Positions 21,601 to 26,720 of a DNA stretch of 27,866 nucleotides are shown here, piece by piece (position 1 is the first letter of the stretch; every line of letters starts with the position of its first letter). A program made the position numbers and the translations under genes. The stretch lies in UHGV virus genome UHGV-0161508; one strand, given 5' to 3'. The notes under the pieces were generated by a model. It saw nothing but the letters and a program-made list of their open reading frames with translations, ran no database searches and was not told the origin of the DNA. The DNA comes from a virus.

Positions 21601-21912
21601 ATGATGATTCTGACTCTGAAAGATGAGCGTGAAATATCGCAAATAATCGCAAGTTTTACTGATGAAGATTACGAACGAATCAAAAGTGAAGTTGATCGCC
21701 TCTGCAAACGGTGCGACCCAATAAGCGAAATGCTTCGCTCATATAAACCAGATGAACACACTAAGGACGCTATCGACTGGCTGGAAGATTATGACTGTAA
21801 CTATCAGGAAAAAGCCGCTGAATGGTTCTGGGATGCAATAACCGAAAGAGTTAAGGCTGAATATGCCTTCGCAATATTCAAACGCAGACATATTTATGGA
21901 GAAGCTGCATGA
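21601..21912 (+). CDS. Hypothetical acidic protein (103 aa) upstream of recT
   Basis: ORF with AGGAGAAAG before the ATGATG start; stop overlaps the recT ATG (ATGA). No family recognised. Confidence 0.55.
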   Translation: MMILTLKDEREISQIIASFTDEDYERIKSEVDRLCKRCDPISEMLRSYKPDEHTKDAIDWLEDYDCNYQEKAAEWFWDAITERVKAEYAFAIFKRRHIYGEAA

Positions 21913-22820
21913 GCAATATCGTTGAATTCGTTAAACAGCAAGAGCAGTTATTCTGCGGAGCATTGACTGAACAGACGGTGACATGGGCTAAGGAAAGCCA
22001 GTTTGCAATTCAGTATTTCCAGAAAAATGATTACCTGGCTAAAACGGCACTGGCAAATCCAACCAGCGCACAGAACGCCATCATCAATGTTGCGGCGATC
22101 GGCATCACCTTAAACCCGGCCAGCAAACTGGCTTATCTGGTTCCTCGCGACGGCATGGTGTGCCTTGATATCAGTTATATGGGATTGCTCCATATTGCAA
22201 TGGAGTCTGGTGTTATCTCATGGGGTCAGGCAAAACTTGTTCATGCTAACGATACCTATGAGTCAAACGGGCTTGATAAAGCACCAACCCATAAATACAA
22301 CGCCTTCGGTGATCGTGGTGATATCGTTGGCGTTTACTGCACAGTTAAGACGCCAGCAGGTGATTATCTAACGGAAGAGATGAGTCTGGCTGAAATTGAG
22401 GCTGTAAGGAAAACAAGCAAGGCGGCATTCAGCGATAAAGGACCATGGGTAAATCACTGGAATGAGATGGCGCGAAAGACGGTCGTAAAGCGTGCAAGCA
22501 AGTATTGGCCTAAGGCATCACGTCTTGATAGTGCTATTCACGTACTAAACGAAGAAGAAGGTGTGTGGACTGAACCAGTTATGCCGCACAAATCAGAGGA
22601 AGATATCCGCGAAGATGAACGGAAACGCCAGCAGGAAATAACGGATAAAGCACAACTTCTTTGTGATGAAATGGCTCAGGCTGAAAACATGGATGATTTG
22701 AAGCGATATTTTGCAGAAGCATATCGCCTGACATCTGGAATGAAATTGCAGCAGAACGTACAAGCCATTTACGCAGAATGCAAAGCGAAACTGGAGGTTG
22801 CCAGTGAGCAAACTATATGA
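21909..22820 (+). CDS. recT: RecT-family single-strand annealing recombinase
   Basis: 303 aa; C-terminal segment GPWVNHWNEMARKTVVKRASKYWP parallels the Rac RecT motif GPWVTHWEEMAKKTAIRRLFKYLP. Confidence 0.85.
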   Translation: MSNIVEFVKQQEQLFCGALTEQTVTWAKESQFAIQYFQKNDYLAKTALANPTSAQNAIINVAAIGITLNPASKLAYLVPRDGMVCLDISYMGLLHIAMESGVISWGQAKLVHANDTYESNGLDKAPTHKYNAFGDRGDIVGVYCTVKTPAGDYLTEEMSLAEIEAVRKTSKAAFSDKGPWVNHWNEMARKTVVKRASKYWPKASRLDSAIHVLNEEEGVWTEPVMPHKSEEDIREDERKRQQEITDKAQLLCDEMAQAENMDDLKRYFAEAYRLTSGMKLQQNVQAIYAECKAKLEVASEQTI

Positions 22821-23286
22821 AATTGCCAATGAATACGCAAAATTGATGGATTCAGATTTAGAACCAGAGATGATTGCTGACACAATAGAAGGCATGGAAG
22901 GAGAATTTACCGATAAAATAGAGCAACTTCTTGCCATTATTAAAAATGAATCTGGTTATGCTGAACGCCTCAAGGAAGAGGCAAAGTCACTGAATGAGCG
23001 AGCCGCAGTAATTCAAAATAAGATTGAGAGCATCAAATCATATATAGCGTCATCGCTTGAAATGGTTGGCAAGAAAAAGATTCGAGCAGGTATTCACCAG
23101 GTAACAATCCGCAAACCGTCAGAAACTGTAGAAATCATCGACTCAAGCGCCCTTCCTCCTGAATACGTTGAGTTTGAAACGACAATTAAAGCCGACAAAC
23201 TGGCAATCAAACACCAACTAAAAGCAGGAATAAATATCCCCGGCGCTCAACTCAAAGTTGGGAAACCTTCACTTCTTATCAAATAA
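22804..23286 (+). CDS. Gp157-like (Sipho_Gp157 family) recombination-module protein, tentative
   Basis: About 160 aa, helical, immediately after recT. Start chosen at GTG 22804 (GGAGG 6 nt upstream); the track starts at TTG 22798. Family call is from memory of the pattern and context. Confidence 0.45.
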   Translation: MSKLYEIANEYAKLMDSDLEPEMIADTIEGMEGEFTDKIEQLLAIIKNESGYAERLKEEAKSLNERAAVIQNKIESIKSYIASSLEMVGKKKIRAGIHQVTIRKPSETVEIIDSSALPPEYVEFETTIKADKLAIKHQLKAGINIPGAQLKVGKPSLLIK

Positions 23287-23297
23287 CGGTATCGACT

Positions 23298-23612
23298 ATG
23301 AAAAAGACTCCATGGGAGAAATGGGAAGTCGATTTCTTGCGCGAGGTAGCGGCGACAATGCCAGTTGAAGTTATCGCTGAAAAACTGGAAAGGACTGAAA
23401 AAGCAGTAATGGCGAAAGCAACAAGGATTGGCGCTGACATTGTTAGCCGACTTCGTGGAAGACGATGGACAAGAGCCGAAGTATCACTTTTCGGTAAGTT
23501 CTCCGCAGAAGAAATAGCAATTGCAACCTGCCGCTCAATTTATTCAGTAAGAGCTATGCGATACAAGCTAAAAAAACTCGATGAAGAAAGAGCAGGCATA
23601 CGAATAAATTAA
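23298..23612 (+). CDS. Hypothetical protein with two tandem W-x2-E...L...IA..L.RT..AV repeats (possible tandem HTH/Myb-like fold)
   Basis: 104-aa ORF; repeat units MKKTPWEKWEVDFLREVAATMPVEVIAEKLERTEKAV and RRWTRAEVSLFGKFSAEEIAIATCRSIYSVRAMRYKL. Confidence 0.5.
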   Translation: MKKTPWEKWEVDFLREVAATMPVEVIAEKLERTEKAVMAKATRIGADIVSRLRGRRWTRAEVSLFGKFSAEEIAIATCRSIYSVRAMRYKLKKLDEERAGIRIN

Positions 23613-23628
23613 CATGGAGTAATTAACA

Positions 23629-23910
23629 ATGAAGCTAAACATCGACCTTGGAAAATACGTTATTACCGGAACCAAACACGACCTGATTCTTAGTGAAAGA
23701 GGAATTATCAAAGAAGGCGAGAATGCAGGGAAAGAAACACTAAGTCGTATCGGTTATTACAGCAAGTTTGAGCATCTGGTTAAAGAGTTATGCAACCGTG
23801 AAATCCTGTTATCTCAGGCGCAGACACTACAGGATATTCAGCAGCATATCGAGACTTTAGGTGTATCACTTAGCACGGCTGTTGACCAGTTCGCGGAGAG
23901 TAAATCATGA
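23629..23910 (+). CDS. Hypothetical protein (93 aa)
   Basis: ORF with stop overlapping the next small ORF (ATGA); no family recognised. Confidence 0.5.
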
Positions 23911-24074
23911 GAGGACTTGCATACAATCCCGGCATTCTTCCGGCAGAAATGATTATTCGCCAACGCGTAAAGCCAATGCCATCGAGAGAGGAATTGCTTA
24001 AGAGAAATTCTTTTCCATCAGTGAATCAAAACAAATATCTGAATTCGATGTGGCGCAAAGGAGGCAAGCAGTGA
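23907..24074 (+). CDS. Hypothetical small protein (55 aa)
   Basis: Manual translation [55 protein letters not shown]; GGAGAG 6 nt upstream; translationally coupled on both sides. Confidence 0.3.
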
Positions 24075-24325
24075 GTAATTCCGCACGACTACAGCTTGGT
24101 TTTTCACCGCTATCAAAAACTATCATGCTGGCAAAAATGCGCGATGTTGAAGGTGGACGTATGCGCGTTGGCAATGATCCAGGTCGTGATGTTACCAATG
24201 AGGCTGCTCAATTGGTGTGGCGACTGGTCATGGCTGAAGGTGGTGAGATCGCGTGGGAACTTGATGATGGTTCTCGCATGGTGTTGAAGGCAGAGAAGCA
24301 GGAGGCAACCAGTGAGCAAGATTGA
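24071..24325 (+). CDS. Hypothetical protein (about 84 aa; start at GTG)
   Basis: AAGGAGG 6 nt before GTG 24071; the track ORF starts at ATG 24050, which lacks an RBS. Confidence 0.4.
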
Positions 24326-24935
24326 TTATCAAAAGCTTCGTGAAATCGCTGAAAAAACAAAAATTGCTGGTGAAGCACCTGTAATGCCTTTCGATCAGCG
24401 AATTAATGCGCTTAACGATTTTATGAAGCACTTTTCGCCAGATATCGCGCTGGCATTGCTGGATGAACGTGAAAGAAACCAGCAATACATCAAATCCCGC
24501 GACCAGGAGAACGAGGAAATTGCGCTAACGGTAGGGAAGCTGCGTGTTGAGCTGGAAGCAGCAGATAACAACCTTATTGATAGTGAATGCCATGTTGCTG
24601 AACTGGAAGAAGCGCTACGCGATAAGCAGGCATTACTTGAAGCCTCAGAAAAGCGCATTGCAGAACTTGAAGCACGGGAAATAAAACCAGCCAAAGGCGA
24701 AGTTCTTGTCGTTGTATCTGGTTTTACTGGTTGCGGAAAAAGCGCCATTGCCGGGGAAATAGAAATCGCGATGAAGGCTATTGGTGTACCGGTTCAGTGG
24801 ACTAATGGCGATGCGGAAAAGCGCATGACAGGAGCTGACTGGCTGACAGCGATTGAGATGTACAAACCAACAGTGCGCATCGTGGAAGTTAATGTGCCAC
24901 GCGCCGCAGGCATTCGCATCAAAGAGGGTGAGTAG
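24312..24935 (+). CDS. Ead/Ea22-like protein (coiled-coil early-region protein), tentative
   Basis: 207 aa; N-terminal [17 protein letters not shown]..., central ERERNQQYIKSRDQENEEIA and coiled-coil ELEEALRDKQALLEASEKRIAELEAR are typical of the Ea22 family in lambdoid early-left regions. Confidence 0.55.
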   Translation: MSKIDYQKLREIAEKTKIAGEAPVMPFDQRINALNDFMKHFSPDIALALLDERERNQQYIKSRDQENEEIALTVGKLRVELEAADNNLIDSECHVAELEEALRDKQALLEASEKRIAELEAREIKPAKGEVLVVVSGFTGCGKSAIAGEIEIAMKAIGVPVQWTNGDAEKRMTGADWLTAIEMYKPTVRIVEVNVPRAAGIRIKEGE

Positions 24936-25107
24936 TGCGTGTGGCATGTATCGGCTTGTTACCGTACCCGACTCGTTTTTGGGCTTCTGCGCTAATTGCA
25001 AAGCCACATGTCCTGATGGCTGACAACATCATCCCGGCACCAAAGCGCCGCCATACCGGTATTGCAGCGGCACGACGAGCAGCAAAGAGACGCAGGAGAG
25101 CAAAGCG

Positions 25108-25284
25108 ATGAAAAACCGTAAGGCAAAACGACTTTTTTTACAGCGACCTGTGCGTGTGGTGGAGCTGGTTATTAGCAACCATAAGATAGCGGTACTCCAT
25201 CCATTTGGTCAGGTGGCTTTTGCCGCAAAGCGTAAGCCTACTGCGTCACAGAACAGGCGGAAGAAAGGGTACGCTGTAAGATGA
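25108..25284 (+). CDS. Hypothetical small basic protein (58 aa), paralogue 1 of a tandem pair
   Basis: Manual translation MKNRKAKRLFLQRPVRVVELVISNHKIAVLHPFGQVAFAAKRKPTASQNRRKKGYAVR; AGGAGAG 7 nt upstream; stop overlaps the next ATG. Confidence 0.35.
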   Translation: MKNRKAKRLFLQRPVRVVELVISNHKIAVLHPFGQVAFAAKRKPTASQNRRKKGYAVR

Positions 25285-25469
25285 AAAACCGTAAAGCAAA
25301 GATTCTGTTAGTTCGTAGAAACGCTCCTGGCGTCTGGCAGTGGGTGAGACTCAGCAACCGACGGATGGGGTTGATGAAATATTACGGGATGATGGATTGT
25401 GGTTTTTGCAAAAAGCCCAGCGCGGCGCAAAACCGCTGGAAAAACCACTTGCGCACTAAAGGAGAGTGA
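25281..25469 (+). CDS. Hypothetical small basic protein (62 aa), paralogue 2 of a tandem pair
   Basis: MKNRKAKILLVRRNAPGVWQWVRLSNRRMGLMKYYGMMDCGFCKKPSAAQNRWKNHLRTKGE; shares the MKNRKAK-L-L--R N-terminus with the upstream ORF. Confidence 0.45.
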   Translation: MKNRKAKILLVRRNAPGVWQWVRLSNRRMGLMKYYGMMDCGFCKKPSAAQNRWKNHLRTKGE

Positions 25470-25470
25470 T

Positions 25471-25698
25471 ATGGCTAACTCATTACTTGAAACCTGCAAC
25501 AACTGGCAGATTCAGAGGGCGGAGATTTTATCTCGCAATCCAGATATGGCAATGACAATTGACAATCTGGATACGCTAATTGAGCGAACCGTGCGCTCTG
25601 CAATTGATATAGCACATCGAGTGGATTGGGATTTCAGAGAAGCGGAGCGACTTGCTAAAGAGCAGGCGAAAGCATCGGGTAAAGGAGAGGCATCATGA
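25471..25698 (+). CDS. Hypothetical protein (75 aa; start trimmed to RBS-supported ATG)
   Basis: AAGGAGAG 5 nt before ATG 25471; MANSLLETCNNWQIQRAEILSRNPDMAMTIDNLDTLIERTV...; the track ORF starts 24 codons earlier inside the previous gene. Confidence 0.45.
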   Translation: MANSLLETCNNWQIQRAEILSRNPDMAMTIDNLDTLIERTVRSAIDIAHRVDWDFREAERLAKEQAKASGKGEAS

Positions 25699-26720
25699 AA
25701 ACTTTCACTATTGACTGGCTCAACAAATGCCGCTGCGGGAATAAATCACACACGGTCAAAACAGCTCGCGGAAATGAAACCGCCTTGTGGGATGACGATG
25801 CCGTTAAGTGCAACTCCTGCGGTCGTGGCGGAGTCATTCAAGTCTGTGAGGGGCAGGCGCGAGTTTTATGGGAAACCGATGAAGAGATGGCGGATGGAAA
25901 ACCCATGACCACTATAACCAAAGAGCGACTACTGACAATCAAGCAGTGGCGCGAAACATACGGACCTGATAGCAACGTTGTACTGCCAGCAGAAGAAGCG
26001 GAAGAACTGGCACGAATTGCTCTGGCATCACTGGAAGCAGAACCAGTTGCTTATATTTTCAAACATCCGGCCGGGAAATTATTCTGGGCTTTAACGGATG
26101 AAAGCAATAAAGAGCAAGCGGACGTTATTCCTGTTTATGCTGCCGCGCCTGCGTCGGTTGTGCCGGATGATGCATCAGGGGCGCTTGCTTATGCTTACAA
26201 AGAGCTTACGCCTGAGATTATGCGCGGTCATATCGCTGTATTCGAGCGATATGGAATAGCCCCAAACGATAGCATTACCACAATTCAGGCACTGCGAATC
26301 GCGCTGGATGGCATAGAGCGGAGCGACGCCATGCTTCATGGTGCCGAAACTGTAAGCCAAACTTACAAGTTGCCTCCCCTGTCATCCAGCGAAGTAAACG
26401 ACGCGGCATGGAAATTACACAACATGCTGACTGAACACGGCCTGCTAAATGGGCGTCAGTTCAACAATCTGAAAGGTTGCTTCTATGAGGCATTAAAGGT
26501 CGCAATGCGCAACTATCCGGCAACTCCGGATAGTTGGATAAGCTGTAGTGAGCGAATGCCGGATAAGTTAATTCCGGTAATGGTCATGTATGAAGACGGT
26601 GAGATGTGGTCTGCAATGTGGAATGGCAATCGCTGGGATGATGGCACCGAATACCCGGATCCGCACTCAGTTACGCACTGGCGTGAAATGCCAGCAGCAC
26701 CGCAGCAGGAGGTGAAGTGA
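25695..26720 (+). CDS. DUF551-domain protein with N-terminal Cys-rich (zinc-ribbon-like) region
   Basis: 341 aa; N-terminus CRCGNKSH...CNSCGRGG; C-terminus WISCSERMPDKLIPVMVMYEDGEMWSAMWNGNRWDDG...VTHWREMP fits the DUF551 pattern common in lambdoid ea regions. Confidence 0.6.
   Translation: MKTFTIDWLNKCRCGNKSHTVKTARGNETALWDDDAVKCNSCGRGGVIQVCEGQARVLWETDEEMADGKPMTTITKERLLTIKQWRETYGPDSNVVLPAEEAEELARIALASLEAEPVAYIFKHPAGKLFWALTDESNKEQADVIPVYAAAPASVVPDDASGALAYAYKELTPEIMRGHIAVFERYGIAPNDSITTIQALRIALDGIERSDAMLHGAETVSQTYKLPPLSSSEVNDAAWKLHNMLTEHGLLNGRQFNNLKGCFYEALKVAMRNYPATPDSWISCSERMPDKLIPVMVMYEDGEMWSAMWNGNRWDDGTEYPDPHSVTHWREMPAAPQQEVK

Follow-up and report, generated by a model that had tools for sequence, protein, structure and literature searches.

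ORF1 and ORF2, two adjacent small genes in the window analysed here (the whole 27,866-nt virus genome UHGV-0161508), are very probably real, translated and anciently diverged paralogues, as judged from their sequences. The explanation that best fits the data as a whole, in which our confidence and our doubt are evenly balanced, is that of ancient paralogues in recombining arrays that encode predicted nucleic-acid-binding early proteins. The pair itself is real, widespread and ordinary in kind, and its genes have already been catalogued (PHROG 1380, RefSeq and a note in the phiV10 record).

Locus and expression signals of the gene pair

ORF1 (25108..25284, + strand, ATG start) encodes a 58-aa protein of the 'ISNHK' type of the MKNRKAK family with an internal-copy tail, and ORF2 (25281..25469, + strand, ATG start) encodes a 62-aa protein of the 'SNRR' type with a terminal-copy tail. 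The preliminary description had reported two adjacent frames of these lengths with a common MKNRKAK start, and this was confirmed by the sequence and the ORF list: the ORF1 stop and the ORF2 start overlap in ATGA at 25281-25284, and both N-termini read MKNRKAK-(R/I)-L-(F/L)-L. ORF-A (24935..25111, + strand, GTG start, 58 aa, very basic, pI 12, phrog_13831) is an upstream neighbour outside the MKNRKAK family, and is joined to ORF1 by an ATGA overlap of the same kind. ORF-A is annotated by PGAP on plasmid pW46_1 and has a 21-nt in-frame deletion in 933W. Downstream, a 75-aa gene without an assigned function (25472..25698, + strand, phrog_10585) is a variable neighbour, with other genes in this position in other phages. 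Its stop is overlapped in ATGA by the start of a 341-aa ORF (25695-26720), which has an N-terminal CxC...CxxC zinc-ribbon-like segment and a DUF551 domain at residues 280-337.

The wider neighbourhood comprises RecT (21909-22820), an Ea22-like gene (24312-24935) and the DUF551 protein (25695-26720), with DUF4752, an ASCH-type gene and a small xis-like gene as further neighbours. The site belongs to the accessory stretch that runs from the recombination genes to xis in a lambdoid prophage (RecT ... Ea22 ... ORF-A, ORF1, ORF2 ... DUF551 ... xis-like), and the host element is an E. coli prophage in whose early accessory region the pair resides, in line with the accessory location proposed earlier. 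From about 21900 to 26029 the window matches the W46 chromosome without a difference (all of locus L001 before position 26030), and the two diverge beyond this point, which makes a related prophage of a different strain the probable origin of the window.

ORF1, as the first family gene, is preceded by a strong Shine-Dalgarno sequence (AGGAGA, 25094..25099, + strand) 8 nt before its ATG. This site lies within a conserved leader, AGGAGAGCAAAGCGATGA, which accompanies the first family gene of the array in nearly all loci, even where the upstream gene is a different one. Because the leader moves with the first family gene, unrelated upstream ORFs at other loci all share the C-terminus ...RRAKR before the stop; the same C-terminus in ORF-A is simply the conserved Shine-Dalgarno and spacer of the following MKNRKAK gene. 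ORF2 lacks a Shine-Dalgarno sequence comparable to that of ORF1 and its start sits inside the ORF1 stop, which makes it probable that its translation depends on coupling to ORF1. The final codons of ORF2 (KGE-stop) contain the Shine-Dalgarno sequence of the next gene (AGGAGA, 25460..25465, + strand).

No promoter-like or terminator-like sites were found on the + strand in the 1.7 kb scanned (24300-26000), and Rfam covariance models gave no match at E <= 1 over the same interval. ORF1 and ORF2 would be transcribed early, on the leftward (pL) message. The 3' part of ORF2 also contains a 12-nt inverted repeat (25399-25410 / 25437-25448, 92% complementary, 26-nt loop), which was considered as a conserved RNA element and rejected as its 5' arm falls in the variable core; it is probably incidental and not kept in the family.

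Homology, age and coding status of ORF1 and ORF2

A repeat finder identified a 21-nt direct repeat, GATGAAAAACCGTAARGCAAA, with one copy at 25107..25127 (+ strand), covering the ORF1 start codon and codons 2-7, and a second at 25280..25300 (+ strand), at the 5' end of ORF2. Both copies are identical at 20/21 bases and are spaced by 173 nt, and none of 100 dinucleotide-preserving shuffles of the window produced a second copy with 3 mismatches tolerated. Past this repeat, whole-gene global alignment of ORF1, ORF2 and ORF-A detected no nucleotide similarity. The preliminary description had named similarity limited by chance to the first seven codons as an outcome that would speak against duplication; the limit to seven codons was indeed observed, but chance is not its cause, because the similarity is conserved at the protein level and recurs at the C-terminus.

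At the protein level, ORF1 and ORF2 share 37% identity over 54 aa (BLASTP, E = 5e-10). After removal of the first 10 residues, the local alignment still scored 53, compared to 19.3 +/- 3.7 for shuffled sequences, none of which (0/5000) reached 53. Further motifs common to both are a central SN(R/H)(R/K) and a C-terminal KP(S/T)A(A/S)QNR(W/R)K. In ORF1, the C-terminal motif and internal-copy tail, KPTASQNRRKKGYAVR followed by the stop, are encoded at 25234..25283 (+ strand); the corresponding conserved motif of ORF2, KPSAAQNRWKNH, is encoded at 25413..25448 (+ strand). Both proteins match PHROG 1380 along their full length (ORF1, E = 6.5e-23, residues 1-58 on profile positions 1-60 of 62; ORF2, E = 1e-40, residues 1-62 on positions 1-62 of 62). 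The earlier characterization as small Arg/Lys-rich paralogues is therefore upheld, with pI values of 12.0 (ORF1) and 11.3 (ORF2), a net charge of about +14, and 16 Lys and Arg residues per protein spread over the length.

The age of the duplication was judged from synonymous sites and from related pairs. Synonymous sites between ORF1 and ORF2 are saturated (pS about 0.7), and even in the region of the 21-nt repeat the two differ synonymously at codons 5 and 7, which gives no indication of recent gene conversion. A much more diverged pair in L087/L088 consists of the same two types in the same order (58 aa, ISNHK type, then 63 aa, SNR type). Together with the 37% protein identity and the separate orthologues of each type, these observations indicate that the duplication is old. 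They leave little of the earlier reading of a local duplication if this is taken to mean a recent tandem event in this genome, with rapid diversification afterwards and a Cys-rich, possibly metal-binding, second copy. The adjacency of the genes, their near-identical 5' ends over 21 nt and a spacing of exactly one gene unit (173 nt) would suit such an event, but a recent tandem duplication should show nucleotide similarity along the whole repeat unit and only the 21 nt are common. Identical ORF1-ORF2 pairs in 137 genomes also speak against an origin in this genome; the pair has been passed on or transferred as one block. The supposed Cys-rich stretch of ORF2 amounts to C40 and C43, both in variable columns of the family alignment (A3), and cysteines are not kept across the family; a Pfam zf-C2H2_jaz match (E = 0.096) was below the cutoff and came without a conserved Cys/His ligand set. 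These points already refute a recent local duplication. The probability that the frames are not functional proteins at all, and that their conserved ends act at the level of DNA or RNA instead (as recombination linkers or ribosome-binding regions of neighbours) with incidental reading frames, is also very low. This explanation would account for the Shine-Dalgarno sequence formed by the last codons of ORF2, the leader conserved with the gene before ORF1, the terminal-type 3' end that is near-invariant in nucleotides (pS 0-0.2) beside a saturated core, and the recombination breakpoints in the conserved ends. It is at odds with one amino-acid motif being written in different codons in the two tail types, with a central SN(R/H)(R/K) conserved whether Ser is encoded by AGC or TCA, with an excess of polymorphism at third positions, with length and frame surviving indels across very divergent cores, and with an AlphaFold confidence that climbs to 85 once the family alignment is supplied.

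The coding evidence behind this judgement comes from both diverged and closely related sequences. Across the family, motif residues are kept via synonymous codons (Ser AGC/AGT/TCA, Arg CGC/AGG/AGA/CGA, Lys AAA/AAG, Pro CCC/CCT, Gln CAA/CAG), and pN/pS is 0.0-0.47 in the first ten codons of diverged members and 0.15-0.64 in the C-terminal motif between the two tail types. Within clades, 8 synonymous and 8 non-synonymous polymorphisms were counted for ORF2 (17 haplotypes) and 10 and 6, respectively, for ORF1 (10 haplotypes). Third codon positions take 20 of these 32 changes (18 synonymous, 14 non-synonymous; binomial P = 7e-4), an excess that places both frames under purifying selection. Within types, changes in the core number about 8 synonymous to 9 non-synonymous, and those in the ends 10 to 5. 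The core within each type is under purifying selection. The "diversifying" character suggested in the preliminary description is not supported: the core differs strongly between types, yet selection within each type is purifying and no positive selection was shown. ORF length (58-64 aa) has been held through saturated divergence and in-frame core indels, with rare exceptions being one locus with a frameshifted ORF1 and one genome with a frameshift fusion of both genes.

In the single E. coli genome with the fusion (P0126), a frameshift in the ORF1 tail creates a natural 119-aa ORF1-ORF2 protein with both domains in one chain. This and similar forms (P0161, P0107, P0015 and others) were considered as informative domain fusions but attributed to frameshifts or to differences in start-site annotation.

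Family distribution and remodelling of tandem arrays

The suggestion to look for the MKNRKAK family elsewhere was borne out, as it is conserved in many phages. An exhaustive HMM search of 1.84 billion representative proteins returned 51 matches at E <= 1e-3, and a profile search of a 5.8-billion-cluster collection returned 208 clusters (90% identity). Two repeat proteins from the HMM search (P0102 and P0110) were judged spurious. The named clusters come only from Escherichia, Salmonella, Citrobacter, Enterobacter, Hafnia and Phytobacter, and their labels are invariably hypothetical or prophage protein. The family is thus small, and the hosts of its named members are Enterobacteriaceae. Its signature, M(K/N)NRKA(K/R).L ... 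(R/K)(I/V)SN(R/H)(R/K) ... K.SAAQNRWKNH, combines near-invariant ends with about 30 hypervariable core residues that separate the conserved motifs; in alignment A3, N3 and R4 are invariant and M1, K5, A6, L9, N26, Q50, N51 and R52 are conserved at 90% or more. Membership was defined by three motifs in order, (K/N)NRKA(K/R).L, SN(R/H)(R/K) and SA(A/S)QNR(W/R)K, all of which are present in ORF1 and ORF2 and conserved across the 51 representatives.

Searches against other collections placed the pair in no characterized group. Pfam and NCBIfam gave no usable match for ORF1 or ORF2, PADLOC models gave none at E <= 1, and a profile search of PDB sequences gave none even at E = 10. A membrane peptide or hydrophobic toxin finds no basis in either protein, as there is no hydrophobic spanning segment and GRAVY values are -0.53 and -0.87.

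In phage genomes, tblastn found the family in 146 records, and its carriers include 933W, VT2-Sakai and other Stx phages, the P1-like phage-plasmid RCS47, phiV10, Sashavirus and the 121-kb lytic phage Av-05. Among 5426 complete E. coli genomes, an ORF2-type sequence is present in 693, including those of 933W-type Stx phages and P1-like phage-plasmids, and the ORF1-ORF2 pair in 137. Full-length ORF1 was found in 139 records of these 137 genomes, mostly P1-like plasmids, ORF1 followed by ORF2 in the same number, and ORF1 never without ORF2. These blocks are near-identical (mostly >= 99%), and the observation that ORF1 is never alone could therefore mean that one block has spread recently, not that ORF1 functionally depends on ORF2.

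More distant members occupy other settings. A 79-aa member with a GTG start (L091, 2501-2740, opposite strand), seen in metagenome contigs L091-L093, is the first gene of an island of three in a different phage type, flanked by Mu F-like and cement-like head genes in a moron-like layout. A 69-aa member with a different Lys-rich C-terminus occurs in L094/L095 and in the lytic coliphage Av-05 (NC_025830.1, 70873-71016), where it sits among genes without assigned function, which indicates that the family is not confined to temperate phages. One viral contig (L016, position 570) has a third family gene of the ORF2 type (62 aa) about 0.76 kb upstream of the pair.

Array architecture was counted in 87 sequences, consisting of 86 fetched loci (80 of them viral contigs) and the window. 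When viral contigs were first scanned with the family alignment, near-identical ORF2 loci were the only ones recovered, and these counts describe architecture, not diversity. A single family gene is present in 45/87 sequences and the ORF1-ORF2 pair in 37/87, while a few have other combinations, e.g., p50 and p51 of phiV10. Position within the array is reflected in the tail: internal copies end in ...QNRRKKGYAVR and overlap the next start, and terminal copies end in ...QNRWKNHLRTKGE, the final codons of which form the Shine-Dalgarno sequence of the next gene.

Comparison of these loci revealed both a missing unit and chimeric genes. Strain W46 has two versions of the locus, ORF-A/ORF1/ORF2 on the chromosome (L001) and ORF-A/ORF2 on the P1-like plasmid pW46_1 (L002), and in pW46_1, as in 933W, the missing segment is precisely the 173-nt ORF1 unit delimited by the 21-nt repeat. 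L090 has one family gene, in which the copy-1 body from L087 (about 150 nt, with 2 differences) is fused to the copy-2 tail from L087; body and tail meet in the TA(S/A)QNR codons, and the first ten codons are of the terminal type. Similarly, p50 of phiV10 has an ORF2-like body and an ORF1-type tail, its tail-coding segment matching that of ORF1 at 92% over 50 nt. Breakpoints of the chimeric genes map to the segment that encodes the C-terminal motif in ORF2. The missing unit and the L090 and p50 chimeras show the conserved end-coding segments to be crossover points, and arrays of one or two adjacent genes are remodelled by homologous recombination within them. Crossing-over at the 21-nt 5' repeat leads to gain or loss of a whole 173-nt unit, and crossing-over in the QNR-coding motif produces chimeric genes in which cores are exchanged.

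Predicted fold, candidate functions and comparison with known systems

AlphaFold2, provided with the diverse alignment A3, generated a model with a pLDDT of 85.3 and a pTM of 0.55, composed of a helix (4-11), three strands (20-23, 28-32 and 38-43) and a second helix (48-60). Each protein would thus fold as a helix, three-stranded sheet, helix unit, for which no significant structural relative was found. In ORF2 numbering, N3, R4 and K5 would lie on helix 1 and S25, N26 and R27 at the turn between strands 1 and 2. Helical periodicity would place Q50, N51, R52, K54 and N55 on the exposed side of helix 2, and A49, W53 and L57 packed on the sheet.

The order of elements in the model, within about 60-70 residues, is that of the double-stranded RNA-binding domain (dsRBD) and of HicA-type folds. 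Canonical dsRBDs touch RNA at helix 1, at the strand 1-strand 2 turn and at the start of helix 2, and in the model the conserved motifs of ORF1 and ORF2 would occupy these same three places. Membership of either group finds no structural or profile similarity to support it, only the element order being in agreement, and hhalign comparisons with PKR dsRBD1, E. coli HicA and the N-domain of lambda Int were negative. Likewise, no structural or profile similarity was found to the three-stranded-sheet domains of AP2 or of integrase arm-binding proteins. Pfam DUF7279 (PF23945) matched one distant member (P0103) over the SNRR-to-QNR part at E = 0.003 and 17.8 bits, below the cutoff of 24.5, and none of the other 31 members scanned, ORF1 and ORF2 included.

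Given the net charge of about +14, polyanion binding is the role we consider most likely for these proteins, in keeping with the regulators or nucleic-acid binders suggested in the preliminary description. Each may be a small protein that binds a polyanion, probably a nucleic acid such as RNA or DNA, at an early stage of infection or induction, with the type-specific core setting specificity or the choice of partner. This functional assignment, being drawn from charge, motif placement and a predicted fold, is a tentative one, in which we have somewhat less than even confidence. The ISNHK-type ORF1 is probably accessory to the SNRR-type ORF2 or its heterodimer partner, because ORF1 never occurs alone.

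The main rival to nucleic-acid binding, which we regard as unlikely though worth taking seriously, is that they inhibit a host factor or an anti-phage defence system by binding to protein, in which case the conserved ends form a scaffold and the variable core tracks host targets or evades sensors. Early accessory regions of lambdoid pL operons typically house host-directed small proteins, and ORF1 and ORF2 are located in such a region; their cores are hypervariable between types, and relatives occur as stand-alone cargo in unrelated phages (the head-gene island of L091-L093 and the T5-like Av-05). Selection on the core within types is purifying, however, not positive, and invariant Asn, Arg, Lys and Gln residues on a protein with a charge of +14 suit a polyanion better than a protein interface. 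Nor is there similarity to catalogued systems, a result to be read with the coverage of PADLOC in mind, which includes defence but not counter-defence proteins. Nucleic-acid binding accordingly stays the reading that we prefer, and a more elaborate form of it can be imagined as a cassette system. Here, a constant "handle" made up of both helices and the SNRR turn would dock on one conserved host polyanion, e.g., RNA, phages would swap type-specific cores via recombination in the conserved ends, and tandem types would heterodimerise, thereby broadening or tuning specificity. We consider this elaboration improbable as it stands.

With respect to existing annotation, ORF1 and ORF2 belong to PHROG 1380 without any difference from it, and this family has no assigned function. 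Its members include p50 and p51 of phiV10, and the phiV10 record names VT2-Sakai p08 in its notes and states that p51 resembles p50, making the tandem paralogy visible in existing annotation. ORF2 is present in RefSeq as a hypothetical protein (WP_000797279.1/WP_000797276.1), and ORF1 homologues have been annotated as hypothetical in RCS47 (gp057) and TL-2011b (gp16), while PGAP left ORF1 unannotated in the matching W46 chromosome record. No paper on the motif, the accessions, PHROG 1380 or DUF7279 was found in the searchable literature.

The closest parallel in terms of niche is provided by the small exo-xis proteins of lambda and Stx phages (Orf60a, Orf61, Orf63, Orf73/TraR-like, Ea8.5 and Orf55). 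These proteins and ORF1/ORF2 are alike in size class, in their place on the early pL transcript between the recombination genes and xis, and in belonging to a variable gene set downstream of ea22. The exo-xis literature does not treat the MKNRKAK family; a review of exo-xis proteins describes extra genes in this region of Stx phages, with full or partial duplications (PMC8614690).

What is new here is the coding evidence, which supports ORF1 as a real conserved gene under purifying selection, together with a family signature and a confident predicted fold, and the growth, shrinkage and chimerism of arrays via recombination in conserved ends. If the cassette reading were true, about 13% of complete E. 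coli genomes, among them those with Stx phages and P1-like phage-plasmids, would contain a small effector that is modular, can be shuffled and serves the lysis-lysogeny or host take-over programme. The exo-xis-type region influences the lysis-lysogeny decision of Stx phages. With 933W-type Stx phages and P1-like phage-plasmids among its carriers, the family is a reasonable, if non-urgent, target for work on small phage proteins.
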